Source: Albugo candida | Taxonomy: Eukaryota | Assembly (NCBI GenBank): GCA_040437565.1 | Contig: JBDOQK010000004.1 | Location: 248,001 to 312,000 of the forward strand | Length of the DNA: 64,000 nucleotides | Direction: 5' to 3' | Part shown: piece after piece, positions 1 through 51,892 of the stretch | How positions within the stretch are numbered: position 1 is the first letter of the stretch | How the letters are laid out: every line of letters starts with the position of its first letter | Notes under the pieces: generated by a model | Seen by the model: only the letters and a program-made list of their open reading frames with translations | Told to the model about the DNA's origin: nothing | The model's database searches: none | Translations under genes and position numbers: made by a program

Positions 1-151
1 GACTAACGCGACACCAACAATATTAAAATCCCTAGCGTCACTATTCGTGTGTTGAAAGAAAATCACCATTTGTAGTTTCTATAGATAATGACGTTTCAAG
101 TATATAAAATCTCTTTAACAGCTACAATACCACTCTGGTACCGTATGGTAA

Positions 152-233
152 TGTCAGCGGTGGGATTTGAACCCACGAGTGCGAACACAGTAGAACTTGA
201 GTCTACCCCCTTAGACCGCTCGGGCACACTGAC
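152..233 (-). tRNA. trnL: tRNA-Leu, anticodon CAA, intronless, long variable arm
   Basis: Reverse complement reads GTCAGTGTGCCCGAGCGGTCTAAGGGGGTAGACTCAAGTTCTACTGTGTTCGCACTCGTGGGTTCAAATCCCACCGCTGACA. It has a 7-bp acceptor stem (GTCAGTG/CGCTGAC), anticodon stem GTAGA/TCTAC with loop CT-CAA-GT, T-arm GTGGG-TTCAAAT-CCCAC and discriminator A. Confidence 0.96.
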
Positions 234-289
234 TGGTGCTCCATGGTTTGGTGCAGTCTCATAAGTTGTTTATAAAAACGGATGAAGTG

Positions 290-3200
290 ATTATCTTGCC
301 ACGTAATCTGTCCGGTGTTGATCTTCTCTTTTTGCCAGCTGCTGCATACCTGCCCAGCAGAATACAACAAACTTTCTACCCTGTCGAAGATAATGGTTTC
401 TCTCGACATCTCAAGCCTTCCTACCGTACTTCACCGGATGCTGACCACCCGTATCCTAACAACTTGTCCGTTACATCACCGGATGTGGGTAACTTGTCTC
501 CTCGTAACTCGTCCATAGCGACCCGTTACCTGTAAAGGATGCGCCCACGTCCTCACCTAGCCCGTCCAACCCTTTACCGGCTGACGTGGTAATTGGCCAA
601 TCAGAGGCCGATATGGAGATTGAGACACCTCTCTCTCCCATTCCGATTCCTGCCAATCAGCCGGTCGCAATGGATTGTCAAGGATTTCATTACACTGTTT
701 ATCTGGTTTTTTAACTACCTTCCTTATCCTATCATGAGTCCTTGACCGTGTGAATATCACTTAAGTCTGACTTCAAACCTAGGGAGGCAGATATTTTCCA
801 AGCTTANNNNNNNNNNNNNNNNNNNNNNNNNNNNNNNNNNNNNNNNNNNNNNNNNNNNNNNNNNNNNNNNNNNNNNNNNNNNNNNNNNNNNNNNNNNNNN
901 NNNNNNTAACTACCTTCCTTATCCTATCATGAGTCCTTGACCGTGTGAATATCACTTAAGTCTGACTTCAAACCTAGGGAGGCAGATATTTTCCAAGCTT
1001 ATTGCTTGGGTGGGCTCAAACCGCTGCCCAAACTGCCGGGAATCGAACCAACGACCTCCGGCAGGGGGTCTGTGCGCTCAAGTACTTAACCGACTGAGCT
1101 GGGTACGGCACCCCAGCCGGTCGCAATGGAGGTGGATGACGCGTTGCCGTTAGCACCTCGGAGATCGGTTGAGCAAGGGAAGAAAACCGGTAATCGGCCA
1201 AGTCTCGCTGATATCCTGAAGGGTCACGAGAAAATCCGCAAGGATAAAGCGGCTTAAGAAGCAACCTGGAAGGTTGAAATGCCCAAGCCTTTAGCGTCGG
1301 ATCTACGCGCAATTGAAAAGCTGTTCGAAGAGGGCCGTCCAAGTTGGGAGGTTTTGTCTGCTCACTTGATTGCAGCCAAACGTTTCGTATTACCGAGCGC
1401 CAAATTGTCGGTTGTATTGGAGACTGGACAAGCGCTGGTTCGAACCCCACCAGCGCACATTTTGCAATCTTTTGTTCGAGATCATGATAATGTGATATTC
1501 GACGAGCTCTTTAAAGCTGGACAAATTGGCCAATTGGCAAAATTACCTTGTGGTAATTTGAGACTACTTGTTACCGAAGAGGAAGTCTGCCAGAGATTGG
1601 CCAATGAAAATGTAAAGATTCTCGGTAGCAGCTACTCCTTCCAAGAATTTGATATTCTCGGTTCCTGATTTTTTTGGATATTTTCGGAATTGTACCGGAA
1701 ATGTCCACTCAAAAACTTGCGTCGGCATTGCATCGTCTTGGTTGCGATGTTCAGTATGAGAATTTTCGCGAAGCAGTGGCTTCCAGAAGACTTTCCATGT
1801 CGACTTGGAGAGTGTACTCTTTTTTCTTGTTTCTTGCGGCACAAGCTGTCCTTAGCAGCTCAATGTTGGCGGCAAAGTGTGTGAGCGAATATGTATCGAG
1901 GGGAGATACTACTTGGCTCGAGGAAAAGCTTCTCCACTCCCGGTCGATCGGTTGAGGATGGGTCAGCGCAGTCCGCACTGCTTACTGCTGCCGGTGAACA
2001 CTCCTCAACAGAATCGGCAACAAAAAACCAAATCGGCTTCATCGGCTGCAAGTCAGCCCGTGAAGTCACAACAAACACAAACACCAGACAGAATCAACGT
2101 AAACATGCCGAAAAGTGTCTGAACAAAGTCCCACAAACAAGCTTCCAGCTCGTAAAGTCTCTTCTGTTCGAAACGTCGCTGATGAAAACGTTTCCGAACT
2201 ACCCAACTCGGATCCATCCCAACAGGTATTCCTTCTGCTGTTCCGGATGTCAACGACAATGAACAAAAACTTGCAGAAAAAGCATCGTCACAGTATACTG
2301 AAGATATGTGGACTCCAGTTCGAACATGCAACAACAAGCGCAATCGCTCGCTCGATTTCAGAGTTTACTAAGCAATGCCCCTCCAAAATCGTTGGACGGT
2401 TTTGCTACAAGCAGTTACTTTAATGTGCTTGGGTCGGTCGAAGTGGATTTCGTGAAAATCGACGTAACAATGAAAGACGAATTTGAAAGAGGTACCAGAT
2501 TGTACCATCCAAACTCGTGGTTAAAAATGATCTGGCTAATTTCAAAGAAGCGTCTCATTTCATGAAGAAAAACCACACCCGGAACGAAAAGGACGATCGT
2601 CCTACTTGAGTGGAAGAGTTGGTGGACTTCCTGATCCAAGATTTGAAAACAGCTCAAACTCCTCCTAGACCGGATACTTTACTGAAAGGGGATGTTCATG
2701 TGGCCAAAGCAAGCAAACATGTTGGATTCACCTCCAACGGAGACAGCATTCTTCAATTTGCCATGGACCATCCGATTGCACTGCATGGAGTGCTAAATCG
2801 TAGCATGAGGTCGAATGACCCATGCTTGGAGCAAGTGATTCGAATACACACCATAAACCGTATACTTGCAGCATCCGAGCCGAACTCGGATACCACGTTC
2901 AACAAAAAATGATCAAAGCAAGTCGGTGCTTCCGTTTCGGCCGTTCGGAAAAATATGCTCGAAACGGTGGACAACTGGTGGACTACATCAGTAGAAGTGG
3001 AAGCATTGACACGAGCACATACTCCCTCTCGTTCTTCGAGCTAATGTTGATGTACATGGCACCAACAATATATCATAGCGACCACTGGATCCAGTACGTT
3101 ACTGGTCAGCCGGTGTTGTGGATTCCAACTCACCACTGTCGTCTGCTTCACACGAATGTGTTGTTGCACAATTTGCGCTCATCGCTGGGTACACTTTGTC

Positions 3201-3364
3201 TCAATGAGTGGTTTGAAGCAAAGTGGGAGAGTCCAATTTTCGATGACTTGGTGCAGTTACAGTCGTCGACCCTTCTTCTTACCGACGAAGCTTTCATACT
3301 AAAGCTGAAGGAGGAAGACGGGGTTAAAAAACTCGTCGTTGAACCCCTGTCAGTTCAATACTAA
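290..3364 (+). pseudogene. LINE ORF1 (long, roughly 850-900 codons), frameshifted and interrupted by a SINE
   Basis: ORF fragments 236-535, 1279-1668, 1674-1955, 1877-2122, 2308-2565, 2610-2912 and 2822-3364 are collinear with homologous fragments in copy 2 (e.g. FxLPSAKxSVVLETGQALVRTPPA; FFELMLxxxAPTxYxSDHWIQYVTG; VVExLSVQY*). Confidence 0.8.
675..1113 (-). mobile_element. tRNA-derived SINE (about 244 bp after collapsing the gap artefact)
   Basis: Perfect 17-bp TSD CAGCCGGTCGCAATGGA at 658-674 and 1114-1130. The minus-strand head has A-box AGCTCAGTCGGTTAAG and B-box GGTTCGATTCC. 712-806 is repeated at 907-1001 across the N gap. Confidence 0.85.
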
Positions 3365-6300
3365 GGGCAGCTCAACGGACATTCTTCCGTAGACAAATAA
3401 AACCATTCTTTTCGTTAATACAAACGGAATCAAAAAGAATGGTCATCTATTGATACAACACACACTATCGAAATACGCTATTTATTGCGTACAAGAAACT
3501 CATTTTCGCGACCGTCACCACCTGAAGTCTTTCTAGTTTCACTTGGCTTCCACATTCCGACATCATCTTTTTGTCAGTAACTCGAATATTCTTCACTCTC
3601 ATCCCGTTCGGGAACGAGTAAACAGGATTATGACAATTATTCGTCACGATTTTCCCGGATCTGATTCTGCACAAGCTCTTACCTCTGTCTCCGTACCCGA
3701 CTGATATTTGGTTGTACATATGGCGATTCTTGGAGCTCCAGTATATATCCATAACGTTTATGCTCCGGTGAATCTAGCGGAACGCAAACATTTTCGATCA
3801 ACTTCCAACGGGATCTTTTGAGCAACATGCGACGCACATAGTTTGTGGAGATTTGGACAAAGCCTTGTGTCCCAGTTTGAATTGATCCAGTGGTGTATAT
3901 AGACACGAGACAAGTCGACGATCATGTTTGGAATGGCTCTACAACTTGGGTGTTCTGGATGCTTTTCGTCAGCATCATCCTGAAGCACGTTTCTTTACTG
4001 GCCCCAAACCAAGAAAAACGACTAGATTACATCCTTTTGTCGGAACCTCTATTCCAGTCTGTTTACAAGGAGTCCAGTTACATTTCACTCCCACATACGG
4101 GTGATCATCTGGCTCATGTTGTAAAGTTCGCAAATCCATCTCAACTCCAAGGTCGTGGTTATTAGAAATGTCCTTTATCATTATTCGACTCTCCAGTAAT
4201 CAAAGAAGCGATCGAGAAGGAGGCGGATCGTATCTTAGCAAAACTTCGTGTTTCTTCTCATCCTGGAACAGACTGGGAGAATTGGAAGAAGCAGACAAAA
4301 AGTTATTACAGCAAGTTCAAAAGAAGATTCGTCGACAGGAAGATTTGGATGTCAACCGCGCTCGTGCTGAGCTGGACGAAGCTGCAGCATCTTTTCAACA
4401 ATAAATCAAGAACAAGAAAAAAAGCTGTACGAAGACGCCCTTCGCTCTTATCATGGCAGGGTCAGGAGCTCGTCCAAGTATAATAAAGCCTCCATGTTCG
4501 ATTACCACTTGAAGAGCGTGGAGAAATCAACCCGACATTTCTTTCGACCAGTGGATTCAACCTCTCATCGTGTACCCTTGGAAGAAGTTCTACTTCCTAA
4601 TTCACAAGTGTCTACGAGCCCTATTGACATCACTCTTCAGTTCACAGATCACTGGGGTGGTATTATGGGAGATCAAAAAAGTTCAGCTGGACTTCCTTTG
4701 CGTCCATGCGCGACACAGCAACACACATTGCTTCACTCGATCACAGAAAAATTTTCCAGCGCTGACGAATCCTTTTTGTCCGCTCCATTAACCAAACTGG
4801 AGATGGAAGAAGCAATAAAAAGTATGCGTGGACACTCGTCACCTGGAATGGATGGATTGCCGGCACCATTCTACCAAATCGCTCCGAGTGTTTTTGGTGA
4901 ATGTTTGCAAATTGTCTTCGAACAACAACTTCGTCGAGGCTCTTTGCTGCGTTCTCAACGTAGTTCAGCAATCACGTTGCTATACAAAGAAGGATCCCGT
5001 GCTGATTCTGGTAACTATCGTCCTATTGCCCTGATATGCGTGGATGTGAAAGTGCTGTTGAAGGTACTTGCGTACCGAATTAAGCAGGTGCTCCCGAAAT
5101 TGATCCACGAGGACCAAAAAGCATTTCTTCGAGGACGTTCCATCCATCATCACATTCGGTATATGAGTGATCTGCAAGATCTAGTCACTCATCGTGATGA
5201 AGAAGCATACGCAACATTTCTCGATTTTGAGAAAGTGTACGATCGAGTGGATTGGTCGTACATGTTTGCAGTTTTATCGGAAATGAAGTGTGGAAATTCG
5301 TTCATCCAGTGAACAAAGCTTCCGTACACCAACACGACTGTATCGTTGTTGCTGAATGGAAAGCTCTCGCCAAAAATCACTCCGTCGAGGGGTGTTAAAC
5401 AGGGTGACCCACTTTCCTCTTTGCTCTTTCTCATGACGATTGAGCCGATGGGGAATTTGTTGCGCAGTAATGAAGGACCAGGAATATGCATCAATCCAAC
5501 GACTACAGCAACGAGTTTGTTTTTTGCGGACGACTCGACATTATTATCGTCTTCGCTCAGCGGAGTGGAGGCGCAGCTCGAGATCGTTCAGAAGTATTGC
5601 GATGGTTCAGGAGCAAAGCTTAACTTGTCAAAGTCCACTTTGCTCCCACTGAATCGACACCACGTAGGTCAACCGTTTGCACATGTGAAAGTAATCTCAC
5701 CGAGCGCGTCGGTGAACTATTTGGGAGTTCCATTCAGTCAATCACCCGTTGGTGATTTGATGATCGAATTCTTAGGAGATCGTTTTTATGGTGGATTCCT
5801 TCAGTGGTTTCGTCGGACCAGAACAGTTCGTGGACGATTACTGTTGGCACAAACTATAGTGTTATCACGTTTATGGCATCTTACATCTCATTTCAACATC
5901 CCGCAACATTTCGTTCGACGCTGGCAATCGATGCTCAATCAATTCGTTTTGAGTCGGAAGTATGAACGCGATTCAACACACGTTCAACTGATCAAGTCGG
6001 ACTTCTTGTACCTACCTCATTCAGAGGGTGGCTTTCAGGTTCCGATTATCTCAGCACAACTGAAGAAACAACGCTTTCAGTTTTTACAACAATTTTCACT
6101 TCATTCCAGTACAGCTTTACCCAGCAACTGGACACTTCCTGGAATGGAGACAACACGCTGCATTTTGCCCAATTTTGGGCCATATCGATCACTCGATATC
6201 CTCACGATATCACCACGTCGGCATAGGACCATGGTGCACTGGAATATAGCGTCGCAATGGTAAAAGCAGACATGTATTTGGTTTCAACAAAGTCATTGGG

Positions 6301-7510
6301 ATCTTACCAACAAAGAACTATCACAACAGGAGCGATTTCTCACGATGTTGGATGCTCCCATATGGTTTCATATAGACCCTCATCTACATTTTGAGAAGAG
6401 ATGACGGTCAACGAGTGTCATTGCTCATCGTCGATGTCTGGGAATGGTACCCGAACCAGCGCGTAGTTTTCGGATGCGCTTTGCTCAAGCGTTTCAATAC
6501 GGTCTCAACGTGACTTGTTTTGTGGAAGGACAGACTGGTTCGTCTCTGATCTCGTATTCATTTTGCGTTTTAGTACAACGGAGGTTGGGAAGCCTTCCGA
6601 TCAGTCTCAATCGAAGTCTTTACGCCGGTTGTACGTCGATGCAACGCAAATCCTGCGACGAGCTCAACCTGATGGCGTATTACGCTGTTCAGTAAGGGAA
6701 CTGGCATACGCTTATCCGGTTCAATTTGGCATTCAACTCTCGGACAAGAAGATTTTCTTTCCGACTGTACCTCGGAATAAACTTTATCAAGTCGTTGGGA
6801 AGGCATTGCTACCGGATAACCACACCCACTGTTGCTTCACGTATCAGAACGTGATCGAAGTGGGACTTCAACATGGGTGAAAGATTTTTACAAGTTATTC
6901 AAACGTCTTCGCAGACTTTTGCTACCGATCTATTCGGATGTTCAGTTCCGACTATCCTTCTGTATCCTACCAGTTCGAGCACGCTTTTGGTTTTTACAAC
7001 AATCACATCCAGAAATCATCCTGTGCACTTAGAAGCATTGTGGTGCGGTCGAAAGCTACCAGCATTTGTTTTTCGATTGCAACAGGACACCTCCAATTTG
7101 GGAAGAGCTATTTCCGTCGTGGACAATCTTTTTTCTGCTCGCCCGCGATGGTCACACATCGCGTGTGCACGGATTCCTGCACTTCGTGATGCGTTGAAGC
7201 CTTTTCGAATGGTGCTGGAGGAGCTTTGGTTCATTAGTACATTAGTCGCGGTCGCGATTCATTTTATTTGGACTGATCGGAATCGCAGACTTTTCGCCCA
7301 CGGCACTTCGACGCCAACTACCCCAGCTGTTCAGTGATTTATGGCACACTGAGTGCCCATATCCGATATCTTCAACGGCAGTGCTATGATACGGAGCAGC
7401 TCGAGCAGTTGACACAAGTATTAGCGTCTTATCAACATACTGGTTCAGCCAGGAGGTATTTCTCTACTCGGCCCAGCCTGCTTCAAGTTCGACACCGGCA
7501 GCGATTCTAA
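3339..7510 (+). pseudogene. LINE ORF2: AP endonuclease, reverse transcriptase and zf-RVT (stops and frameshifts)
   Basis: APE motifs (VNTNG, QETH, VCGDL, RLDYIL, DHLAH). RT motifs (SPGMDGLP, NYRPIAL, FLDFEKVYDRVDW, GVKQGDPLS, FFADD, YLGVP). C-terminal CxxxxC..ESYQHLFFDC. Confidence 0.93.
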
Positions 7511-7673
7511 GTCGGTGATGCGTGGCGTTTTTTACACAGTACTATCTTATTCCAGTCGTTGAACCTAGCTGCGGCTTTCTAGAGCAACATTGCATTCATT
7601 TTGTTTATTTATTGTAGTTTAGGCATTAGAGAAGTCATTTACGTCTAATTCTAGTAATCTAGACAACTTCAGC

Positions 7674-7860
7674 TAATCTGTCCGGTCTTGACACGTTGCG
7701 CGCTGAATGCGCCACATCCTACCTCTGCCGTCGGAACCTGCTCCGTTTGACGTGAATTCGGGTAAAAGAGGCGCTATGGAGATTGACAAACCTCTCTCTC
7801 TGTAGATATTTCCGTCGACCGAACGGGAGAGAGCGCTTAAATACGGAACTACGTTCATTA
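7674..7860 (+). repeat. Short fragment of a LINE ORF1 5' region lying between copy 1 and copy 2
   Basis: 7674-7691 matches 304-321 at 17/18. ATGGAGATTGACAAACCTCTCTCTC (about 7776-7800) matches ATGGAGATTGAGACACCTCTCTCTC (about 613-637). Confidence 0.65.
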
Positions 7861-7880
7861 GGTCCTTAGTTCACCAAACA

Positions 7881-10389
7881 TATCCGCACGTTTCATCTGA
7901 AGTATCCCAACTTCTCAATTTGCCAGCAGCTACGTACCTTGCAAACGTGATACAAAACCAACAACCCAACGTTTCCGAATACTATTCTCTAACAGAATGA
8001 TTTCTATCGACGTTTCGCGTTACCCGTCGTTACGTCGTCCGACGATGTCACACCTCGTGCACCATTCCCAGCGGCAAATGTTTCTTTGGATGCGCTCAAT
8101 AGCCAATCAGAATCCACGGAATCAGAAACGGTCCAATCCGACGTGACCATGACTGCTGAGCCAGCACCTAGTCCACCAAAGGAAATTCCATCCACCCCTA
8201 TGGACATTGATGACGCGGCCGCGTCATCACCTTCTGTATCGGTGGAAAAACCGACTCAAACAGGAAACCGGCCTTCCTTGGCGGATCTCTTGAAGGGTCG
8301 GGAGAAAATCCGCATGGATAAAGCGGTAAAAAAGCAACATGGAAGGTTGAAATGCCTAAGACTTTAGCTGCGAATCTCCCGCTACCGAAAAGCTTTTCGA
8401 AGAAGACCGTCCAAGCTGGGAGGGTTTGTCTGCTTAATTGACTGCATCAAAACCCTTCGCATTACCAAGTGCAAAATTCTCGGTAGTGTTGGAGACTGGG
8501 CAAGCACTGGTTCGAACCCCACCAGCGCTTTTTTTGCAATCGTTTGTTCGGGATCATGTTAACGTGATCGTCAGCGATCTCTTTGACGCTGGAAAATTAG
8601 CCAATTGGGTAATCACCTGATGGTAGTTCGAGACTCCTCGTTACGAGGCAGCCTGCCAGAAATCGGCCATGAAACCGTGACAATTCTCGGAACGAAAACA
8701 CATTCCGGGAGTTTGATATTCTCGATTCAAGATTTTTCATTGACATTTTTGGAATTGGACCCAAAAATCAACCGTTACGACTGCGTCGGCATTGCATCGT
8801 CTTGGTTGCGATGTTCGGTATGAAAACTTCCGTGAAGGAGTGGCTTCCAAACGACTTGCAATGTCGACTTGAAGAGTTGCTTTCCGTGACATAAGCTGTC
8901 CTGCGAAGCTCCTTGTTGGCGGAAATGTGTGTGAGCAGATATGTATCGAGGGGAGATACTATTTGGCTCGCGGAAAAGCTTCTCCGCTCCCTGTTGATCG
9001 GTTAAAGATGGGTCAGCGCGATCCACACTGCTTATTGCTGCCGGTGAAAACTCCTAAACCAACTCAGCACCCCAAAAAGAAACACGCTTAATCGGCCGAA
9101 AGCGATCCCATGAAGCAGAAAACAACAAAGAACAAAAACAAAGTCAACGTCACCACACTGGAAGTGTCACAATCACGACCCGAATTCAAGAACCCTAATT
9201 TTTAGGACACTTCTGTTGGAAACGTTGCTCGGATCCACCTCAGCAGCACATTCTCTCTGCTGTCTAGGATGTCGAAGTCAATGAAACATACTACCGAACA
9301 ATTCGAGTCGAGGTCCACCGAAGACATGTGGACTCCAGTTCGAACTCCAAACAAGCGTGATCGATCTCTCGATCGCTTTTAAAGTTTATTGAGCAATGCT
9401 CCGCCAAATCATTGGAAGGTCTGGCTACGAGCAATTATTTTAATGTGCTTGGCTCCATCGACGTCGACTATATAAGAATCGACGTAACCAACAAGGAAGA
9501 CTTTGGACAGAGGTAGCAGATTTTACCATCCAAACTTGTGGAGTAACGATCTGGCCAATTTTAAAGAAGCGGGTCACTTCATCAAAAAAAAAAGAATCAC
9601 ACCCGGATTGAAAAGGACGATCGGCTGACTCGTGTGGCAGAAGTGGATGACTGCTTATCCAAGATGTGAAAACAGCTCAGTCTTCTCCACGACAGGATAC
9701 GTTATTAAAGAAGGATGTTCATGTTGCGAAAGAACGTAAACATGTTGGATCCACTACCAAAGGCGACAGTATTCTCCAATCTGCAATGGATCATCCGGTT
9801 GCACTGCATGGAGTGCTCAATCGTTGCATGAGGTCCAACGACCCATGCTTGGAACAAGGGGTGCGAATACAGACAATAAAGCGTGTATTGGCAGTGTCCT
9901 AACCAAATTCGGATACTGCGTTCATGATAAAATGGTCGAAGAAAGTCGGTGGGTCCGTTTCGGCTGTTCGAAACATTTATTCTCGACACGGTGGACATCT
10001 GGTGGACTGCGACAGCTGAAGTGGAGGAATTGACACGAGTAACAAACTCGCTCGCGTTCTTTGAGCTGATGTTGACGTGCACGGCACCAACCATGTACTA
10101 CAGCGACCACTGGATCCAGTACGTTACTGGTTAACCAGAGATGTGGCTTCCCGCTCACCACTGTCGTCTGCTTAACACGAGTGTGTTGTTGCACATTTTG
10201 TGTTCACCGCTAGGTACACTTTGCCTCAGCGAGTTGTTTGACGTGAAGTGGGAGAGTCCAATATACGACGACGTGGTACAATTACAGTCATCCAACCGTT
10301 TTCTTACCGACGAAGCTTCCATACTACAACTGAAGCAGGAAGACGGCCTTCACAAACTCGTCGTTGAATCCCTTTCAGTTCAATACTAA
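7881..10389 (+). pseudogene. LINE ORF1, copy 2 (heavily disrupted)
   Basis: Fragments 8086-8367, 8438-8620, 9666-9902, 9949-10134 and 10141-10389 are homologous to copy 1 ORF1. Confidence 0.78.
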
Positions 10390-12254
10390 GGGAAGCTCAA
10401 CGGCAACGTCTTCGTGGACAAATAAGACCATTCTTTCCGTAAACACAAACGGAATCAAAAAGAATGGTCAACTTTCCATCTCACATACTTTTTCAAGGTA
10501 CGCCCTTTATTGTTCACAAGAGACTCATTTCCGCGACCGTCACCACCTGGAGACCTTTGAGTTTCACTTGGCTTCCACATTCCGACATCATCTTTTTGTC
10601 ACTGATTCCAATGGGGATCACTCTCATCCCGTTGGGGAAAGAGTAAACGGGGTTATGACTATTATTCGTCCCGATTTCCCGGATTTGAATCTGCACAAGC
10701 TCTCACCACTGTCTCCGTACCGACCAATATTTGGTTGTACGTTTTGTGATACTTGGAGCTCCAGTATACGTAAATAACATTCATGCTCCGGTGAACCCAG
10801 GGGAACAAAAACTATTTCTTGATCAACTTTCAACGGGATCCTTTGAACAACACGCGACGCACATAGTTTGTGGCGATCTGAAGACAACATTGTTTCTCAG
10901 CTTGGATTGCTCCAGTAGTGTATGTAGACACGAGACAAGTCGACTATCATCTTTGGAATGACTCTACAACTTGGGTGTTCTGGATGCTTTGCGTCAACAT
11001 CATCCTGTAGCACGTATCTTTACTGGCCCCAAACCAAGAAAAACCGACTAGATTACATCCTTTTGTCGGAACCTCTATTCCAGTCAGTTTACAAGGAGTC
11101 CAGTTACATTTCAATCCCTCATACGGGTGATTATCTGTGCATGTTGTGAAGTCCGCAAATCCATCCCAACACCAAAGTCGTGGTTATTGGAGATGTCCTT
11201 TATCACGATTCGACTATCTAGTAATAAAAAAAGCGATCGAGGAGGAGGCGGATCGTATCTTGGCAAAGCTTCGTGTTTCTTCTCATCCTGAAAACGACTG
11301 GGAGAATTGGAAGAAGCCCACAACAAAATTTTAACATCAAGTTTAAAAGAAGCTTCGTCGACAGGGAGATTTGGACGTCACACACGCTCGTGCTGAGTAG
11401 GACGAAGCTGCAGAAGCTTTTCGACAATCAAGTCACGACCAAGAAAGAAAGTTGCACGAGAAAGCTCTTCGCTCGTATCAGAACGGGTAAGGAGTTCGTC
11501 CAAGTATAATCAAGACTCCATGCTCGACTACCACATGAAGAACATGGAGAAAGCTTCTCGCTATCTCTTTCGCCCCATGGATTTGACTTGTTATCGTGTG
11601 CCTTTAGAAGAAGTTCTACTTCCCAATGGACAAGTGTCTAAGAATCCCATTGATATAACTCTTCAGTTCACAGATCACTGGGTGGTATCATCGGAGATCA
11701 AAAAAGTTCAGCAGGACTTCTTTTGCGTCCATGTGCGACACAACAAGACACATTGCTTTAATCGACAACAGCAACAATTTTCAGCCTTGACGAATCCTAT
11801 TTGTCGGCTCGATTAACCATAATGGAGATGGAAGAAGCAATAAAAAGTATGCGTGGACACTCGTCACCTGGAATGGACGGATTGCCGGCAGCAACTTGCT
11901 TCGAGTGTTTTTGGTGAATGTCTGAAAATTGTTTTCGAACACCAACTTCGTCGATGCTCATTGCTGCGTTCTCAACGTAGTTCAGCAATCATGTTGCTAT
12001 GAAAAAAGATCCCGTGCTGATCCTGGTAACTATCGTCCTATCGCCCTGACATCAGTGAATTTGAAAATGCTGTCGAAAGCACTTGCGTACCGACTTCAGC
12101 AGGTGCTTTCGAAATGGATCCACCAGGATCAAAAAGCATTTCTGCGAGGCCGTTCCATCCATCGTCACATTGGGTACATGAGTGACCTGCAGGATATGGT
12201 CCCTCCTCGTGATAAAGAAGCATACGAAACGTTTGTCGATTTTGAGAAAGCGGA
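10364..12254 (+). pseudogene. LINE ORF2, copy 2 (APE and partial RT)
   Basis: APE and RT motifs as in copy 1, with multiple frameshifts. Confidence 0.85.
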
Positions 12255-12354
12255 NNNNNNNNNNNNNNNNNNNNNNNNNNNNNNNNNNNNNNNNNNNNNN
12301 NNNNNNNNNNNNNNNNNNNNNNNNNNNNNNNNNNNNNNNNNNNNNNNNNNNNNN

Positions 12355-15351
12355 ATCACATCGACATTTCTTTCGACCAGTGGACTCAACATGTCATCGT
12401 GCCGTGTACCCTAGGAGGAAGTTCTACTGCCTACTTGCCAAGTTTCTCTGACTCCTTTCGATATCCCCCTTCAGTTCACAGATCACTGGGTAGGTATCAT
12501 GGGAGACCCATGAAGTTCAGCTGGACTTCCTTTGCGCCCATGTGCGACGCAACAACAAAAATTACTTCAATCCATCACAAAAACATTCTCCAGATTGGAT
12601 GAATCCTTTTTGTCCTCTCCCATAACAAAACGGGAGATGGAAGAAGCAATCAATCACATGCGTGGACATTCATCACCTGGAATGGACGGATTGCCCGCAG
12701 CATTCTACCAACTCGCTCCAAGTGTTTTTGGTGAATGTCTAAAAATTGTTTTCCAACACCAACTTCGTCGAGGCTCTTTGCTGCGTTCTCAACGTAGTTC
12801 AGCAATCACGTTGCTATACAAAAAAGGATCCCGTGCTGATCCTGGCAACTATCGTCCTATTGCCCTGATATGCGTGGATGTGAAAGTGCTGTCGAAGGTA
12901 CTCGCGTACCGACTTCAGCAGGTGCTTCCGAAATTCATCCACGAGGATCAAAACGCATTTCTGCGAGGACATTCCATCCATCATCACATTCGGTATATGA
13001 GTGATCTGCAGGTCTGCAGGATCTAGTCACTCATCGTGATGAAGAAGCATACGCAGCATTTCTGGATTTTGAGAAAGCGTACGATCGAGTGGATTGGTCG
13101 TACATGTTTGCGGTTTTATCGAAAATGAATTGTGGAAACTCTTTCAGCCAGTGGACAAAGCTTCTTTACACCAACACGAATGTATCGTTGTTGTTGAATG
13201 GAACGCTTTCGTCAAAAATCACTCCGTCGAGGGGTGTTAAACAGGGTGATCCACTGTCCGTTCTGCTCTTTCTCATGACGATTGAGCCTTTGGGAAATTT
13301 GTTGCGGAGGATTGAAGGATCCGGAATATGTATCACTCCAACGAATACAGCAACAAGTTTTCTTTTTTTTTTGAGAGCCACTCGACCTTATTATCGTCTT
13401 CGCTCGGGAAGTAGAGGCGCAGATCGAGATCGTTCAGCACTACTGAGAGGGCTCAGGAGCAAAGCTTAACTTGTCCAAATTCAATTTTCTCCTCCTCAAT
13501 CGACACCAATTATGTCCACCGTTTGAAGAAGTGACAGCACTCTCAGCGAGTGAGTCGGTGAAATACTTGGGAGTTCCATTCAGTCAATCACCCGTTGGTG
13601 ATTTGATGATTGAATTTTTAGAGAATCCTTTTTATATTGGATTCCGTCAGTGGTTTCGTCGAGCCAGAACAGTTCGTGGAAGACTACTGGTGGCGCAAAC
13701 TATGGTTTTATCACGTTTATGGCACTGTACAACTCATTTGAACATTCCGCAATATATACTTCGCCGGTGGCAGTCGATGCTTAATCGATTTGTTTTGAGT
13801 CGGAAGTATGAGCGAGATTCAACACACGTTCAGCTGATAAAGTCGGAATTCATGTACCTACCTCATTCAAAAGGCGGAGTACAGGTTCCTTTTATCGCAG
13901 CACAATTGAATAAACAACTATTTCAGTTTTTACAACAATTTCTATTGAATTCCAGTACAGCTTCACCCAGCAACTGGACACTTACTGGATTGGAGATCAC
14001 ACGATGCATCTTGCCCGATTTTGGGCCATATCGATCACTCGATATCCTCACGATATCACCACGTCGACATAGCACTTGTGCATCGGAATATAGCGTCATC
14101 ATGGTGGAAGCAGACATGTATTTGGTTTCACCAAATTCAGTCGGATCTTACCAGCACCTATCTATCACAGCAAGAGAGATTTTCCACGCTGTTGGATGCC
14201 CACCTATGGTTTCATATCGATCCTCGGCTTCACTTTGAGAAGAGGCAACGGGTAACAAGTGTCTAGGCTCATCGACGATGTTTGGGAATGGTACCCGAAC
14301 CAGCGCGCAGTCTTCGGATGCGATTCGCTCAAGCGTTTCACATACGGTCCCTACGCGACTTGTTTGGTGGAAGAACGGACTGGTTCGCCTCTGCTCTAGA
14401 ATTCATTTTGCGTTTTAGTACAAGTGAAGTTGGTAAGCCGTCCAATCAGTCTCAATCGAAGTTTTCACGCTGATTATACGTCGAAGCAACGCAAATTCTT
14501 CGAAGTGCTCAACCAGTTGGAGTATTATACTGTCCCGAAAGGGAAATAACACGAGTATTTCCGGTTCACTTTGGCATTCAACTTTCGGACTGGAAGTTTA
14601 TCTTTCCGCTGATTCCTCGGAACCAACTGTATCGCGTCAGTGGGAAGGCACTGCCACCGGATAAATTACACCCACTGTTGCTTCACGTATCAGAACGTGA
14701 TCGAAGTGGGGCGTCAACATGGGTGAAAGATTTTTACAAGTTATACAAACGTCTTTGCAGACGTTTCCTACCGATCTATTCGGATGTCCCGTTCCGACTA
14801 TCCTTCTGTATCCTGCCCGTTCGAGCACGATTTTGGTTTTTACAACAATCACATCCAGAAATCATCCTGTGCACTCAGAAGCATTGTGGTGCGGTCGAAA
14901 GCTACCAGCATTTGTTTTTCGATTGCAACAGGACAAGTACAATTTGGGAAGAGCTCTTTCCGTCGTGGACACTCTTCTTTTCTGTTCGCCCGCGATGGTC
15001 ACATATCGCGTGTGCACGGTTCCTGCACTTCGTGATGCGTGGAAACCTTTTCGAGTGGTTCTGGAGGATCTTTGGTTTACATTAGTCGCGGTCGCGATTC
15101 ATTTTATTTGGACGGATCGGAATCGCAGACTTTTCGCCCACGGCACTTCGACGCCAACTGCCCCAGCTGTTTCGGTGATTTATAGCACACTGAGTGCCCA
15201 TATCCGCTATTTTCAACGTCAGTGCTATGATACGGAGCAGCTCGAGCACTTGACACAAGTATTAGCGTCTTATCAGCATACTGGTTCAGCAAGGAGATAT
15301 TTCTCTGCTCGACCCAGCCTGCTTCACGTTCGGCGCCATCAACGATTTTAA
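12355..15351 (+). pseudogene. LINE ORF2, copy 3 (RT and zf-RVT)
   Basis: SPGMDGLP, NYRPIALICVD, GVKQGDPLS, YLGVPF, CTQKHCGAVESYQHLFFDC. Frameshifts include an 8-bp duplication near 13005-13020. Confidence 0.9.
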
Positions 15352-15531
15352 GTCGGTGATGCGTGGCGTTTTTAACACAGTACTATCTTATTCCAGTCTC
15401 TGAGCCTCGCCGCGGGTTTGTAAACCAACTTCGCATTTCATTTTGTTTATTTATTGTAGTTTAGGCATTAGAGAAGTCATTTAAGTCTAATTCTAATAAT
15501 ATAGACAACTTCAACTAGGTCCTTAGTTCAC
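12355..15531 (+). mobile_element. L1/Tx1-type LINE, copy 3 (RT to 3' end; 5' part lost in the gap)
   Basis: Restarts at the position equivalent to about 4526 of copy 1 and differs clearly from the equivalent part of copy 2 (11553 onward), so it is a distinct copy. ORF2 ends at 15351. The 3' UTR ends ...CTTCAACTAGGTCCTTAGTTCAC. Confidence 0.88.
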
Positions 15532-15599
15532 TTAACCGCTGTTCGAAGCCTCTACGAACTTATCTTATCTGATGTCAGCTAGGTTGCTAATCTTGATGT

Positions 15600-18060
15600 T
15601 CGAAATGTTTTGTTGGTATTAACTACGTCAAGAAATCGGCAAGCAGAAGTTTTGTTGGGATATACTCCAACTTAACGCTTTTAATTTCGAGATCAGGTAT
15701 GAAATGATGTCGGTTGTCAATATGCTTTGCTAGACTCTGATATCCATCATTTCTTGCGATCGCGATTGCGCTCTGATTATCCCCGATCAGTTGGACACAA
15801 ATGGACATTGCAATGTATTCAGCTTCAGCTGAGCTAGGCGCAATACTATTCTGTAGTCGAGATATGTATACTTATGGAGTGCCCTTTATCATGACCATAA
15901 TGCCTGATGTTGAAGGTCGATCATCACGGCTTCCTCTCAAATCTGATTGACTGTAGGCTTCTTTCAATAATTCTTCATTGTTACCTCTAAGTACCAAACC
16001 AAGTTTCGGAGATGTCTTCAAATATCCGAGAGCTCGAATACCTGCAGTCCAATGTGCGAGAAACGGCTTCTACAAGAATAGACTTTGTTCGCACACACCA
16101 AATGAAACGTCGGATCTGGTACTCATTGTACTGTAAAGAAGGGATCCAATCAATGACCGATAGGGCTTGTTCCTCGTATGTTCGTCTTCATTGATTGCTT
16201 TTGTCAGCTTTTGACTTGTGCAGTTTGGATTATAAGCAGGAGCTAGTTTTTTTGGGCGAACTTCTCATCCATCCGTTTGATAGAAGCCTTCTGTTACAGA
16301 CGTGTCACTTTGTTGCTCTTTTCGTACGATAATTCTATGCCCAAATTGAACTGAGCCATGCCGAGTATCTCCATTGTGAAAATTTACGCGAGTTGCTTGC
16401 TGACATCTTTTATCACATCAATCGATTTTGCTGAAATCAACTTGTCATCGACATAGAGTGCGAGATACACGAGTTGTTTCTGTTTACGGCGAACAAAAAT
16501 GCAAGAGTCAGAGGTGCATTGCTTGAACTCAAGATCCAAGAAAACTTTCGAGATCGTCTTGTACCATACCGCTAGTGCTTGCTTGATCCATATAAACTTC
16601 TTTCTAGTTTACATTCTTGACCGGATTGGATTTTTAATCTTCGCGGTGGCCACATGTATACCTGTTCTTTCAATATTCATTGGGAAATGCTGTATCCACA
16701 TCATACTGGTAAATATCGTATCCGAGTTGAACACACAGGCTGAGAAGTACTCTGAGTGAACTGGTTCTTATCGTGTTTTTCTGTATAGTCGACTCCAGCT
16801 GTTTGTCGAAGTGCTTGTGCAAACAGTCGGGCCTTATATCACTGAACTTCACCATGTTCATCTCGCTTGATCGCAAACACCCATTTGCACCCCATCACTT
16901 TTTGACCATTCGGAGAAGTGAGAATTTTACATGTCTTCTTTTCATCCACATATTTGAATTTTGATGCTATCGCAATTTTCCATTGGAGTGCTTCACCACT
17001 TTGCACTTCTTTCTGATACGTTGTAGGGCTATTAAATGCTGCGTTTGCTTGCTCGGACATAAGCCGCAATCGCTTTGACTCTGAATTGACTTCATGCTGA
17101 TCGAGCTGATTTCCATCTGTATACGGAAATGATGGCATCACTGAAACTACTTGCTGGTGGTGTTCTGTGGCGACGTCTGAAAACCATAGTTGTGCCGTGA
17201 TTATAAGAATACTCATCCATTTCGATTCGTCTCCTCGGCACAAAATTGTTTCGGGGCGTTGCCACTAAGTAGTAACTTGGCTAGGAGGTACTGGGATAAT
17301 TTCTCGACCATAATCTTCATCAACCTCCATAGAGGACGTGCNNNNNNNNNNNNNNNNNNNNNNNNNNNNNNNNNNNNNNNNNNNNNNNNNNNNNNNNNNN
17401 NNNNNNNNNNNNNNNNNNNNNNNNNNNNNNNNNNNNNNNNNCGGAAATGATGGCATCACTGAAACTACTTGCTGGTGGTGTTCTGTGGCGACGTCTGAAA
17501 ACCATAGCTGTGCCGTGATTATAAGAATACTCATCCATTTCGATTCGTCTCCTCGGCACAAAATTGTTTCGGGGCGTTGCCACTAAGTAGTAACTTGGCT
17601 GGGAGGTACTGGGATAATTTCTCGACCATAATCTTCATCAATCTTTATGGAGGACGTGCCTTTAGAATCGTGATCCAACGGTGCTAAGTTTGTATCGGAT
17701 CGTCCAGGTAACGTGAGCTGATGGTTTTGGTATTTTTGGCCAGCTTGATCAATTTCCATGAACTGAGGATTCTGAGACTCGATGCGCACATATGAAGTAC
17801 GATAGTCATCATCAAATGAATTTATTCTTCGAGTCATTTCAAGGTTTTGAACAACGCCTTGAACATACTTGGTCTTAATTACTGTCGTTACGTCAATGAT
17901 TTGTGAAATCTCCACTCGCTTGGTAGGTTTGTTGAATATCCGATACGCGTAAGACCCTCCACCTTGTGATTGATGGTCATCAGGGAGAAATCGATTAGCA
18001 GGTATGTGCACGCGTTGCATGCTATAATTAGGTACATACTGGTCAATCAATACAATCCGA
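15600..18060 (-). mobile_element. Ty1/Copia pol remnant (integrase C-terminus, RT, RNase H); no LTRs found
   Basis: Minus-strand motifs: SYAYRIFN; SPTTY..W..AI; VMGCKWVFAIKRDEHG; QYDVDTAF; LYVDD; SSAEAEYIA; GDNQSAIAIA..AKHID.RHHFI; LLADFLT. Confidence 0.9.
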
Positions 18061-21290: not shown

Positions 21291-22719
21291 CTAAAGATAT
21301 GACATGAGAGTTAGATCAACAGGCAGCTTGATCTTGTGTGTTTGAGAACGAAAACATCAGTATTATTCGCTTTTTTGTAATTTTACGCTCTTGTAAATCT
21401 AACTTATGAATATTTCACAGTAGATAAGATTTTCAGGCCACACACTGGAAAAATCTATTCCTAGAATCTGCTGGAGACACAGAATTGGAATCATAAGATC
21501 TATCCTATCGGCAACTTCTAAATCCATTTTCCTGCATCATCTCATCTTCATTAGACTCATCGAAAGAGGACATCATAGTCTGGAATCCGCTACGCTCCGA
21601 CGGTAATTGGTTCGTTAGAGAAGAGCAAAAGTCTGCAGGATTGCGAGTCTGCATAAACATGTTGGTGTTTGTTCGTTCATTCCAAGGCGTGCTTTTATAA
21701 TACTGGTGATCAAGACAGAAGGCTAGGAAAATTCAACCCCGATACATCCATTATTGTGCACAAAGCTTGATAATAAAAATAGATTCTTGAATGCGTACGA
21801 GCTGCAATTTGATGTCACACTTGAGAAAGTCTTATATCTCTTCGGTCATGTACTGTGTATGCTTCACTTTTTATGATTGATTTAACAAGCTTCCTATTCC
21901 ACGACGAGTTACATTACGTTTAGTCGTGACGCTATCGACGTATCGACGACAGCGCATCATATCCTGAACCTATCTTGCATTTGCGAAAGTGCATTCAGCC
22001 GGGATTTTTGAAATTTAGGATGTGGTTCATTTGGGACTAACTAGGGCTGTTGTATTCTCTCCGGTTAGCATTCATCATATAGACCCCTACTGAGAGAGCA
22101 CTTTTTCCTCAACTTGAAGCCCTACGAACTCAGATGTCATTTGCACGGGGATACTTCTTTCTCAATAATGGATTACTTGCGTGCTCAATGACCGCTTGAG
22201 ACATGAAAAAAATTTGAGGGGTAAGACAACAGATCGTTGGGGATGGTTTCCTGCGTCTTTTAATAGCTTTGATACTGACTGAGCTGATAGATGCGACATA
22301 AGAAAAGCTCTTGCATTGGATCCAACTTTTCCTTGAGTTAGACAGAATAGCAAGACCGTCTCATGAGTACGACCGAGATAGCGGAAGAGACTGAGCACAT
22401 GCGAGCTAATTTATCTCCAGGTAAAGATGCACCAATGGCTGCGTTTTACCATCTTAATGCGGAAACGTGTCGCGAGGTTTGAGAGATTGTGTTTTCAGTT
22501 GGAAATAGGTATCTTCGATCGATTATTATACAAAGTAGGAGGACGAGGTGATCGTGGTACTATAGGACGATCACACTACTTTGTGGTGATGTGAAAGCAC
22601 TTCCAAAATCATTCGCGCATCGATGGTGACAATTTTGCCATAATCAAATCAATAAACTCGAAAAGCATTCGTGTGAGTGAGGTCGATGTTTCACCACATT
22701 CGACTCAAAAAAGGCGACT

Positions 22720-24310: not shown

Positions 24311-24595
24311 TTACTCTTCTGTCAGAACACGTGCTGTAAATGACCTTTCTTGTAGCTCTTCATCATATTTCCACACGCCGTTGGCGTTCGTTTTTTCTAA
24401 TTCAAGAGTAGATCTAGCTTTGAATCTCGGCTCCTTGTGATAGACAGTACCGGATGATTGTATATGCTGATTTTCAACATGTTTATTGTTGCCCGCACTT
24501 AGTGAATCATTATAACCGATACAAGGCATGATTCCACCCATATCCAAAGCCCCGAACCACAAAATTGCAGCTGGAAAATTAAGGATCGGCTTCAT
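24311..24595 (-). pseudogene. Secreted RXLR/dEER-like effector candidate, family member A (94-aa ORF, probably prematurely stopped)
   Basis: MKPILNFPAAILWFGALDMGGIMPCIG signal-like N-terminus, then ..RFKARS..DEELQERSF. An Inr/FPR-like GATCATTTTCTTTT lies about 30 nt upstream. Coding-like sequence continues past the stop (NILKVFVKGKAQYLYLIGDTNKKFTVW). Confidence 0.5.
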
Positions 24596-33750: not shown

Positions 33751-34722
33751 TATTTTCCCACACCAACGCAACCTCTCACAAATGTACAGTCTGCATGAAG
33801 GGCCAAAGAGAAAGGAGGTTCTAAGTGGAATAGATGTTGTCATCGACACGGCTGGAAGGCTGCAACCCAGAATCTGGGTCGTTAATGGATTAAAGCTGCT
33901 TCGGCTAACCGAGTTGTCTGTGGATAGGCTTGTGGACTGTAAGGCGTTGACGGGAAGTTTCGATATCGAGGTGTGCCAAGTGCGAGCTGTCGTTGGTGGT
34001 CGAGTTGAGGAGTCGGAGGCTAGGCGCTGATGAGCCAGGCGTGCGAGTCGCGTGTAATTGCGCCGAGCTGGGTGAAACGCACGGGTACGTTGTGCGGCTG
34101 ATGGATGAGGTAGCGAGTGTTGCCCACCCATCGACCCCTGACCTGTGCTGAATATAACATCAATCCAACTTACAACCCCCGATCTTTGTTTGCATAGCAA
34201 AAGGGATACGGTGCTTTCAGCCTAACATTTAATTTTTATAGTACCTTCTACTTGTTGCATAGCTTTGATTTGAGAAAATAAAGCTACTCTACTTACTGAT
34301 AAACCTACACTTATAGCAGGCTTTGACCTTGATTAAATAAATCATNNNNNNNNNNNNNNNNNNNNNNNNNNNNNNNNNNNNNNNNNNNNNNNNNNNNNNN
34401 NNNNNNNNNNNNNNNNNNNNNNNNNNNNNNNNNNNNNNNNNNNNNGGGATACGGTGCTTTCAGCCTAACATTTAATTTTTATAGTACCTTCTACTTGTTG
34501 CATAGCTTTGATTTGAGAAAATAAAGCTACTCTACTTACTGATAAACCTACACTTATAGCAGGCTTTGACCTTGATTAAATAAATCATTTTCTAGAACAA
34601 TTTGACCATCAGTACTTGATATAACATGAGCTGGTATATATGCAGAGGAAATTTCGTTGGCGTGAGAAAATAATGCGCGACCGGTGCATTACATGTTTTA
34701 GATTCCTCTAGGCGAAAGTGGG

Positions 34723-34885
34723 TGCGGGACTGGGAGTTAGTGCACAGCATTCAGTTAGGCGAAGCTGGGTACGGGATGTGAGTCAATGATTTTCCCCTTC
34801 CAGACACAAAGACTTCTAGACTGTTCGCCAAGTGGCTACATGTCCAGCTGACGTATAAGATTCTAGGCTTTGAATTACTTGTTCG
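34723..34885 (-). repeat. Right arm of the inverted repeat
   Basis: See left arm. Partly re-duplicated at 35015-35111 by the gap artefact. Confidence 0.85.
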
Positions 34886-41414: not shown

Positions 41415-41573
41415 TGTAGCGGATTGCAACTTGCGTAGACGGTGGTCTTCGAACTATCTGGAAGGAGCAATAATTTCATGAGGGGATTTATACATTCATT
41501 TTTAACATTGTTTTTAACTCTTGATATAACTTTCCATTATTCAGCACTGAGAAGTAGTTGTGCTTTCGTTATA
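41415..41573 (+). repeat. Copia 5' LTR (159 bp)
   Basis: TGTAGCG...CGTTATA. Differs from the 3' LTR by 11 substitutions and one 3-bp indel (my count). Confidence 0.95.
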
Positions 41574-41577
41574 GATT

Positions 41578-45782: not shown

Positions 45783-45789
45783 AGGGGAG

Positions 45790-45945
45790 TGTAGCGGATT
45801 GCAACTTGCATAGAGAGTGGTCTTCGAACTATCTGGAAGGAGCGATCAGTTTATGAGGGAATTTATACATTCATTCTTAGCATTGTTTTTAACTCTTGAT
45901 ATAACTTTCCATTTTTCAGCACTGAGAAGTTGTGCTTTCGTTATA
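45790..45945 (+). repeat. Copia 3' LTR (156 bp)
   Basis: Follows the PPT at 45781-45789 and matches the 5' LTR. Confidence 0.95.
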
Positions 45946-48814: not shown

Positions 48815-49409
48815 TTTTTAATTTAGATTACGTCATGCCTACTTGAATTATTACTTCCACAACTTTTTTGAAAGTAAATAAGTTTACATTCATAACTACT
48901 AGAAGTCATTTACGTCTAAGGCTAAATTCAGTAGATACAGATACCTTCAACTGAGCTAAACACCAATCACTACTAGACAATTCATTGCCATTTTGTTAAG
49001 CTATAATGCTTCGTAAAGATGCAAAAGTTATTATATACTAACGGCCGAAAATAAAATTTGTTGTGGAAAAGTTCTGCGAAGGAATAATATCTAATTTCTT
49101 ACTAACGCTTGTCCTGAAACTAAGCTTGTAACCGGAATTCTGCAAGACCGCTTATTATGGCCGCTTTTCCGCTATTGCTGCACCTGCATTTCCCTGTGTC
49201 CGATGCTCAGATGCTAAGAGTCAAATGGAAATCGTCACATAAACAGCCTATCACACAGTTGGAACGTTCTGTGTATTAGCCAATCATAAATAATTCTCGA
49301 TTGAAGTTGTTGGAGCACCAATATAGGGTGTGTATGAATGTAATTAGTTAGCAGTGTAAAAACATTTATGTATTTGCAAAAAAGAAAAAGCTGTGAGAGT
49401 AATAATTTA

Positions 49410-51440: not shown

Positions 51441-51892
51441 CAGCTTAGTTGAAGGTGTCTATATTACTAGAATTAGACTAACTGGCTTCTCTAGTTGTCT
51501 AGGGCTAAATAACATATATACATATAAAAACGTTTCGTGAAATACCTGTGAGAGATGATAATATGTCGTCTCGCTGATAATCTCGTATCGTAGTAACCTC
51601 AGCACCCTTAATACGAGACTGTGTCCAGCTTGTAAATGCTCTAAAGTTGAAAAAGATGTAAAGTTGTAAAAATGGTCCAAAAGTACCGTGGTTTGCAAAT
51701 TGGTGTGCGCCACACTGCGGTGAGCGTAACCAGCCAACTAGGACTAGGATCTGAGTTGCACTTGCATTTTGACTTGTCTATGCCGTACCCGCNNNNNNNN
51801 NNNNNNNNNNNNNNNNNNNNNNNNNNNNNNNNNNNNNNNNNNNNNNNNNNNNNNNNNNNNNNNNNNNNNNNNNNNNNNNNNNNNNNNNNNNN

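Follow-up and report, generated by a model that had tools for sequence, protein, structure and literature searches.

Direct sequence recognition and tethering of the TRE5 type, two ways in which retrotransposons without long terminal repeats (non-LTR elements) come to lie at small-RNA genes, are contrasted in a part of PMC3706591. TRE5 lands 44-54 bp upstream of transfer RNA (tRNA) genes in opposite orientation, by contacts between its ORF1p and TFIIIB, and has an oligo-A end (sections of PMC5911963). On the sequence-specific side, excerpts of PMC3706591, PMC4494074 and PMC4640811 name the Tx1-clade elements Keno in U2, Mutsu in 5S, and Dewa in the spacer of the zebrafish tRNA-Leu array, while the cited portion of PMC4640811 gives the NeSL-clade elements LIN15_SM and LIN25_SM in tRNA-Arg and tRNA-Glu of planaria, and also Utopia, a set of non-LTR elements specific for U2 small nuclear RNA (snRNA) genes in oomycetes and other eukaryotes. 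Full-text searches of the open literature found no description of a tRNA-linked long interspersed nuclear element (LINE) in oomycetes, Utopia being the only targeted group that they brought up there; a survey of tRNA targeting in compact genomes never mentions oomycete, Albugo, Phytophthora or stramenopile (PMC5006619). Here we describe such a candidate in a stretch of 64,000 nucleotides (nt) of Albugo candida, contig JBDOQK010000004.1, positions 248,001 to 312,000 of the forward strand (the window), where copies of an L1-like LINE family are piled up at the 5' end of an intact tRNA-Leu(CAA) gene.

The proposal, to which we give no more and no less credence than to its denial, is nicking of tRNA genes in box A by the family, with a 14-bp duplication that rebuilds the tRNA beside the LINE 5' end. 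The tRNA link of the family is plausible and unproven, its sources being a single run of raw reads, a single foreign contig and this one locus. The following sections take up the locus, the letters that stand after the LINE tail in the reads, the competing explanations, and the standing of the family among known systems.

The LINE nest at the 5' end of tRNA-Leu(CAA)

The tRNA-Leu gene is the sole ARAGORN tRNA in the 64 kb (Table 1), and has a TTTT run ~43-46 nt downstream on its own strand. Next to it are two blocks of LINE sequence. Self-BLAST of the window matches 1126-5235 with 8200-12250 at 80%, and 4533-7675 with 12362-15517 at 87%; these blocks overlap by ~700 bp in LINE coordinates across a scaffold gap of 100 N at 12255-12354. 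Within the overlap the identities are 0.833 for B-C, 0.868 for A-B and 0.883 for A-C, and it is from these pairwise values of 83-88% that we count three separate copies, A, B and C.

Copy A begins with (T)CTTCTCTTTTTGCCAGC, has the ATG of open reading frame (ORF) 1 at 613, and ends its tail in ...GACAACTTCAGC, with poly-A absent. Its ORF2, containing an apurinic/apyrimidinic-type endonuclease (APE), a reverse transcriptase (RT) and a CCHC region, runs over ~3327-7507 with frameshifts and a stop at 5310-5312. Copy B has 36 extra nt before the family 5' start at 7911. That start has the motif CTTCTCWWTTTGCCAGC, and in the form CTTCTC[TT/AA]TTTGCCAGC it is common to A (323) and B (7911), the sole two matches in the window. 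The tails of A and C read ...TAGACAACTTCA[G/A]C, in a motif that can also be written ...TAGACAACTTCAAC or ...TCTAGTAATNTAGACAACTTCAAC; all five of the aligned tails finish ...TTCA[A/G]C with no A run, so the family has a specific, conserved tail of ~60 nt.

Target-site duplications delimit the insertions. One of 18 bp, TAATCTGTCCGGT[G/C]TTGA, is found at 304-321 and 7674-7691 with 17/18 letters identical, and abuts the body and the tail of copy A. The other, of 16 bp, TAGGTCCTTAGTTCAC, is found at 7859-7874 and, right after the tail of C, at 15516-15531 with 16/16 identical, and bounds the B..C unit. An alternative layout, in which the LINE would begin with TAATCTGTCCGGT and A and B would form a perfect tandem, was considered and rejected, as TAATCTGTCCGGT is part of the target-site duplication.

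An older copy, Z, becomes visible when copy A is taken out together with one repeat of its duplication, 234-321 is joined to 7692-7858, and the product is aligned to copy A. The pieces 258-321 and 7692-7800 are then colinear with 456-637 of copy A, which is 5' untranslated region (5'UTR) and ORF1 start, at a score of 101 versus 28 for the reverse strand; 7801-7858 lies outside this alignment. The Z core alone scores 60 against copy A, where 200 shuffles have a mean of 21.1 and a maximum of 29. By itself, 234-321 with 15 nt more scores 30 against the whole of copy A (null mean 26.5, maximum 36), which is not significant, and the left piece of Z therefore owes its weight solely to being colinear and contiguous with the significant core. 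The stretch 258-321 is 5'UTR from an A-type LINE, old and 5'-truncated, that lies within 24 bp (234-257) of the tRNA 5' end; over those 24 bp the global alignment is weakly similar, and the local alignment to A begins only at 258.

The locus can now be put in order. Copy A went into the 5'UTR of Z. The target of B/C, 255-271 bp from the tRNA when the locus is taken back to its ancestral state, was Z or whatever had broken into Z. What looks like an array is a LINE-in-LINE nest of dead copies, with the younger A and B/C in or beside Z and in the same orientation. At this one locus the distances from the tRNA 5' end are <=24 bp for Z, 70-88 bp for the target of copy A, and 255-271 bp for B/C.

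The preliminary description of this DNA had the intact tRNA-Leu ending at 233 right, and also the opposite strands with facing 5' ends, the tRNA being minus and Z, A, B and C plus, head-to-head with it. Its TATA-like element at ~269-275 exists, as the string TTTATAAA at ~268-276, but since Z spans 258-321 the string lies inside the LINE and not in a spacer. For the same reason an array starting 50-70 bp upstream of the tRNA has to be given up, that stretch being Z, and a LINE start at 290-300 is replaced by the 5'UTR of Z already from 258, with the body of copy A beginning at 322.

The rest of Z was sought without success. Past 15532 there is no continuation, the window showing no LINE similarity there except a weak unrelated RT at 22363-22703. 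When 7802-7874 with 15532-15760 was compared with the ORF1 of copy A, the score was 25 (shuffles mean 22.2, maximum 34) and no alignment resulted. A second LTR of the neighboring copia-type element, sought during the same hunt, was not found.

tRNA-like letters after the LINE tail

Raw reads of the run X22, which has the same species label, and contigs of X1, X3 and X7 were mapped to 1-8150 of the window. In X22, the LINE body has a depth few-fold above that of the first bin, and the tail is far deeper (933 at position 7625). A joint from the LINE tail to the LINE 5' start, 7671->7910, is present in 166 X22 reads with 104 start places, and it has 16 letters between the two ends, ACTGAGCTAGACAGGC in 46 reads and ACTGAGCCAAAGGAGC in 26. 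A further 599 X22 reads leave the tail with the consensus ACTGAGCTACAGAGGC... / ACTGAGCTACAGAGGCCATTT..., at an agreement of 0.52. The 599 + 166 reads exit the tail into ACTGAGC..., at a local depth of ~930, in two variants of tRNA type.

The reverse complements of the joint letters are GCCTGTCTAGCTCAGT and GCTCCTTTGGCTCAGT, each consisting of seven letters, T, A/G, and GCTCAGT. We took this pattern to be that of tRNA positions 1-16 with box A, and then tested it against viral contigs. The first 16-mer, unaltered, has 7 exact matches there, and 6/7 are the opening of a tRNA-Lys(UUU) gene. With TGG added, the reverse complement of the loose-end consensus has 65 viral matches, and 27 of the 30 that were tested start a tRNA (Thr, Lys, Phe, Ile). 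In both variants the tRNA-like stretch finishes exactly at tRNA position 1. The second variant recurs outside Albugo, in the Globisporangium-like metagenome contig L001, where the family tail is followed by the identical 14-mer (n = 1); that tail is 1.9 kb past ORF2, beyond an extra 444-aa ORF, and for this reason may belong to a separate short element.

We assign these letters to the target, not the element, because A and C run from ...CAAC/...CAGC straight into their duplications. We had also tried them as a constant part of the tail, which was rejected on the grounds that A and C are without them and that the two variants differ at 6/14 positions. All seven of the known junctions begin with T and a purine: TAATC, TAGGT, TGAGC (x3), TAAGC, and the consensus TGAGC.

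The insertion process that we suggest would run as follows. The endonuclease would nick a tRNA gene on its sense strand, at about positions 14-18 (D-loop/box A), and the 3'-terminal CAAC of the LINE RNA would pair with GTTG at tRNA positions 15-18, priming reverse transcription. A second, staggered cut ~14 bp away, at the tRNA 5' end, would duplicate positions 1-14, with the outcome that an intact tRNA abuts the LINE 5' end divergently and a 14-nt tRNA stub stands after the LINE tail. Repeat hits on the same tRNA would make head-to-tail LINE arrays parted only by the stub, and a second hit would give the order tail, stub, 5' start, which is exactly the joint seen in the reads. Insertions away from tRNAs (A, B/C, and those of the 48.9-kb and 51.4-kb elements) would use sites loosely like a preferred CAAC|TRAGC. 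The tRNA targets to be expected would have the D-arm GCTCAGTTGG and would not be of Leu/Ser types, unless RNA polymerase III (Pol III) factors guide the element.

In the window, Z and tRNA-Leu stand divergently at near-zero distance (LINE 5' end <=24 bp), as the geometry of the model predicts. The sequence does not match the prediction, because the D-arm of this tRNA-Leu is GCCCGAGCGG and the GCTCAGTTG motif is absent, and because of that misfit either Pol III factors as guides or chance may be at work. A broader claim would be that an oomycete-wide L1-like lineage, from Albugo to Globisporangium, homes to tRNA box A with a 14-bp duplication that restores the tRNA; we entertain it while leaning somewhat against it.

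Competing explanations

Several results weigh against box-A targeting. The joint of tail and 5' start comes from a single raw-read run, none of the contigs of X1, X3 and X7 showing it, and the letters of the joint are listed for only 72/166 reads. The second 16-mer gave a tRNA start in 0/8 viral matches, and the 18-mer of the 48.9-kb variant gave a tRNA (tRNA-Val) in 1/18. Box A alone biases 19-mers toward tRNAs, and three of the probes had 3-4 letters appended; because of this bias, the unaltered first 16-mer is the result that counts. None of the four tail junctions in the window (0/4) is in a recognisable tRNA gene, only the 48.9-kb junction being box-A-like, and the off-target duplications have 16-18 bp, not 14. 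A LINE 5' start joined to a full antisense tRNA was not observed. At the tRNA-Leu itself the 3' end of Z was not found, a search for the stub finds the first 14 nt of the gene only at the gene, and the differing D-arm means that a purely sequence-specific nick fails to explain Z.

Of the rivals, chance adjacency survives best, and we think it unlikely. It supposes a LINE-in-LINE pile-up in a transposon-rich island, with a tRNA at the edge, a family without any preference for tRNAs, and read letters that come from one or two odd loci. The entire window is indeed transposon debris, A and B/C are in non-tRNA targets as are the window tail junctions, and the contigs lacking the joint would fit as well. 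Set against this is the position of Z: given 314 tRNA genes in 36.88 Mb, figures from a section of PMC13585763, the probability that a random LINE 5' end stands divergently <=25 bp upstream of a tRNA is p ~1e-4, a value that still describes one locus, itself chosen from the many windows of a scan. Chance also has to accommodate the single orientation of Z, A, B and C, the independent reads that show tail, antisense tRNA-Lys and 5' start in two variants, the large number of reads exiting the tail at high depth, and the occurrence of the same 14-mer after the tail in a different genus.

The next rival, which we judge distinctly improbable, is that the tRNA-like letters are not from tRNA-gene targets, and are instead heads of tRNA-derived short interspersed nuclear elements (SINEs) into which the LINE had inserted, short 3' transductions by a few master copies, or products of priming or template switching at the RNA level on a piece of tRNA. 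An RNA-level origin would directly explain the exact stop at mature tRNA position 1 in both variants, and a second variant that is not a demonstrable tRNA start also suits this rival. Abundance of tRNA-derived SINEs is another point for it, and one of them sits in copy A. It has a 17-bp duplication, CAGCCGGTCGCAATGGA, at 658-674 and 1114-1130, and its empty site, the joint 657->1114, is present in 87 X22 reads and in 1 contig each of X3 and X7. A box B, GGTTCGATTCC, is at 1039-1049, and neither Rfam nor ARAGORN calls the SINE a tRNA. Read depth over it is ~20x that of the flank, and in the reads its own flanks are heterogeneous and AT-rich (agreement ~0.4). The head of this SINE is unlike both variants, which counts against the rival, and its 3' end has nothing in common with the LINE tail.

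Sharing of the tail by a high-copy non-coding element also favors a non-target origin of the letters: 550 X22 reads have only the last 30 nt of the tail in common with the LINE (loose ends at 7643, agreement 0.97, with uniform upstream sequence), and they match the element at 51447-51792. From these reads, elements of the 51.4-kb type seem to form a high-copy family, which may be a non-autonomous partner of the LINE. For the similar element at 48.9 kb, no duplication partner was found. On the other side, the second variant reads the same in the Albugo reads and in L001, as would be expected of a conserved gene more than of a SINE or a transduction, and the segment is antisense to the LINE, an arrangement that simple template switching does not yield.

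Weakest of the three, and slightly less credible again than the last, is tethering as in TRE5, by which an element protein would bind TFIIIB/TFIIIC and integrate at a set upstream distance, in opposite orientation and independently of sequence: TRE5 is likewise L1-like with two ORFs and the geometry given above (sections of PMC5911963), all copies at tRNA-Leu are in opposite orientation to it, the target of copy A and the place of Z are both close upstream, and factor guidance would account for a LINE at the 5' end of a tRNA-Leu in which GCTCAGTTG is absent, but the distances vary (<=24, 70-88 and 255-271 bp), there is no oligo-A tail, an ORF1 without recognisable family gives no tie to TFIIIB, and the read junctions put the nick within the tRNA body, at box A, with a stub that ends at position 1. 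Such a nick position is more in keeping with sequence-specific than with tethered insertion. The geometry of ~50 bp upstream by way of TFIIIB, which the preliminary description had borrowed from TRE5, is not supported at this locus, which has no spacer; its wider idea of a Pol III-gene-linked non-LTR family in an oomycete has gained from the X22 reads, the tRNA-Lys match and L001, and stays unproven.

If targeting of box A is true, an insertion would be harmless to the tRNA pool, the LINE promoter would come to lie next to a Pol III gene, and arrays would arise by repeat hits. Compact, gene-dense genomes favor safe landing sites, and yeast Ty and amoeba TREs independently chose tRNA genes. The Albugo family would then have a third independent route to tRNA genes, in addition to tethering by factors (TRE5, Ty1, Ty3) and to site-specific elements that disrupt the gene, in the form of a sequence-defined and gene-sparing targeting, and would have a natural endonuclease for a universal tRNA motif. 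The model would also explain head-to-tail LINE arrays in Albugo and offer insertion markers at tRNA loci by which races of a crop pathogen could be compared. Should it fail, what is left is a transposon nest of the ordinary kind.

The LINE family, the window and the known systems

Pfam finds RVT_1 in window ORFs of both LINE blocks. The closest database relative, P0001, has 1398 aa with Exo_endo_phos and RVT_1 and shares 80% identity across the RT piece. Its matches in copy A, over 3327-7507, are spread among several frames, from which we take copy A to be dead. A relative with fused ORF1 and ORF2, P0006, has its first 750 residues mapping to 1090-3322; the ORF1 region matched no Pfam family. 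Near the C terminus, a C-C-H-C set is invariant in 21 aligned relatives (C1239, C1244, H1252, C1257), and a C-terminal CCHC motif is typical of L1/Tx1. The best match among solved structures is human LINE-1 ORF2p (PDB 9k6g, 8uw3, 8sxt, 8c8j), with E = 3e-48 over residues 26-820 of P0001, covering endonuclease and RT; the E value for R2 proteins is no better than 1e-20. No RNase H was detected in the family. The order of APE then RT, the C-terminal CCHC, and target-site duplications without LTRs are features of the L1 group that are seen here, and its poly-A or A-rich 3' end is not. The family is an L1-group LINE without poly-A tail.

Relatives of the LINE protein are named from Globisporangium, Plasmopara, Peronospora, Phytophthora and Aphanomyces, and the family is widespread in oomycetes. 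Contigs of 6.6-8.4 kb from other assemblies encode unbroken 1398-aa ORF2s (the P0001 protein cluster), so that intact, possibly active copies exist, unlike the dead ones in the window. Dictyostelid RT proteins are 22-28% identical over the RT piece, with match names that are silent on TRE membership. Metagenome contigs gave 434 relatives, of which 80 were kept and only L001 is close, its ORF2 being 50% identical to P0001 and its LINE being without the 5' end. L001 also has an intact 444-aa ORF at 3145-4479 (+) between ORF2 and tail with no convincing Pfam family, and ~150 nt before the tail, antisense motifs like box A and box B can be seen by eye; Rfam calls no tRNA in L001. Viral contigs contained no LINE relatives. 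Prokaryote genome contigs gave 14 loci, every one at <=39% identity. As a background check, 22 distant L1-like loci contained 0 tRNA genes.

The window is draft scaffold, with twelve 100-N gaps in the 64 kb. Self-comparison finds that 7/12 sit between two stretches of 95-393 bp that are 97-100% identical to each other; these are unmerged contig overlaps, the gaps there are artefactual, and local coordinates are inflated. Beyond the LINEs, the remainder of the window is debris of copia, gypsy, MULE (Mutator-like) and SINE elements.

Table 1. Positions of features in the window, with strand and supporting evidence
Feature	Position	Strand	Evidence or remark
tRNA-Leu(CAA), intact	152..233	-	ARAGORN; Rfam RF00005, 52 bits (gathering score 29), model positions 1-71 of 71 (full length)
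Stretch between tRNA 5' end and first demonstrable Z sequence	234..257		24 nt; maybe Z 5' junction or extra letters
LINE Z part 1, 5'UTR	258..321	+	Colinear alignment with copy A; holds left copy of A's duplication (304-321)
LINE copy A	322..7673	+	Pfam RVT_1; tblastn with P0001 and P0006; 18-bp duplication; 5'-start motif
tRNA-derived SINE in copy A	675..1113	-	~244 nt after subtraction of N gap (807-906) and 95-bp unmerged overlap
LINE Z part 2, 5'UTR end and ORF1-start-like ATGGAGATTGA...CCTCTCTCTC	7692..7800	+	Alignment with copy A
LINE copy B, 5' part	7875..12254	+	Self-BLAST; tblastn; left 16-bp duplication; enters scaffold gap 12255-12354
LINE copy C, 3' part	12355..15515	+	Self-BLAST; tblastn; tail ends ...GACAACTTCAAC, then right 16-bp duplication
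Copia-type RT fragments, just past LINE stack (from ~16.4 kb)	16387..16894	-	Pfam RVT_2, E = 2.7e-14
Copia-type element	41415-45945		159-bp LTRs (41415-41573, 45790-45945), 91% identical
MULE transposase; gypsy-type element with chromodomain (RT, RNase H, integrase, chromo); weak DUF659 (hAT-like) fragments	among 49800-51333, 52856-55920, 47114-47672
Short non-coding element with family tail	48890..48964 (element to 48951)	+	Tail ...GATACCTTCAAC, then TGAGCTAAACACC, box-A-like antisense
Non-coding element with family tail	51447..51792	-	Tail, then TAAGCTGTCTAGA; matches high-copy tail-sharing sequence of reads
Gap-flanking duplicates	712-806 = 907-1001; 17124-17341 = 17442-17659; 24523-24655 = 24756-24888; 34203-34345 = 34446-34588; 34818-34914 = 35015-35111; 39717-40109 = 40210-40602; 50584-50711 = 50812-50939

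Human LINE-1 provides the best solved match to P0001 over endonuclease and RT. It has a poly-A tail and loose TTTT/AA targets. The Albugo family differs from it in the specific ~60-nt tail ending CAAC, and in duplications of 14-18 bp. Utopia, as described in part of PMC4640811, is alike in being a target-specific non-LTR group in oomycetes that is kept within a small-RNA gene family, and unlike in its restriction-like endonuclease, its U2 target, and the RNase H that in oomycetes stands upstream of the RT, where the present family has APE and is L1-like.

TRE5-A/TRE5 of Dictyostelium discoideum resembles the Albugo family in being a two-ORF LINE with APE, RT and zinc finger, upstream of a tRNA gene in opposite orientation, in a compact genome (sections of PMC5911963). 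Here the LINE is <=24 bp from the tRNA, the A tail is missing, the distances are variable, and the reads point to a nick in the tRNA body. With dictyostelid RTs so low in identity, any similarity in behavior to TRE5 would be convergent. The Tx1 and NeSL elements would, if box-A targeting is true, have in common with the present family an endonuclease-defined site in a conserved multicopy gene of Pol III type, a fixed junction, and tandem insertions (in excerpts of PMC3706591, PMC4494074 and PMC4640811). The Albugo family departs from them in its oomycete host, in a proposed box A/D-loop site common to several tRNA species, in a duplication that would regenerate the tRNA, and in its many copies off target. 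Sequence-specific LINEs of small-RNA genes are a closer functional analogue of the Albugo family than TRE5 is.

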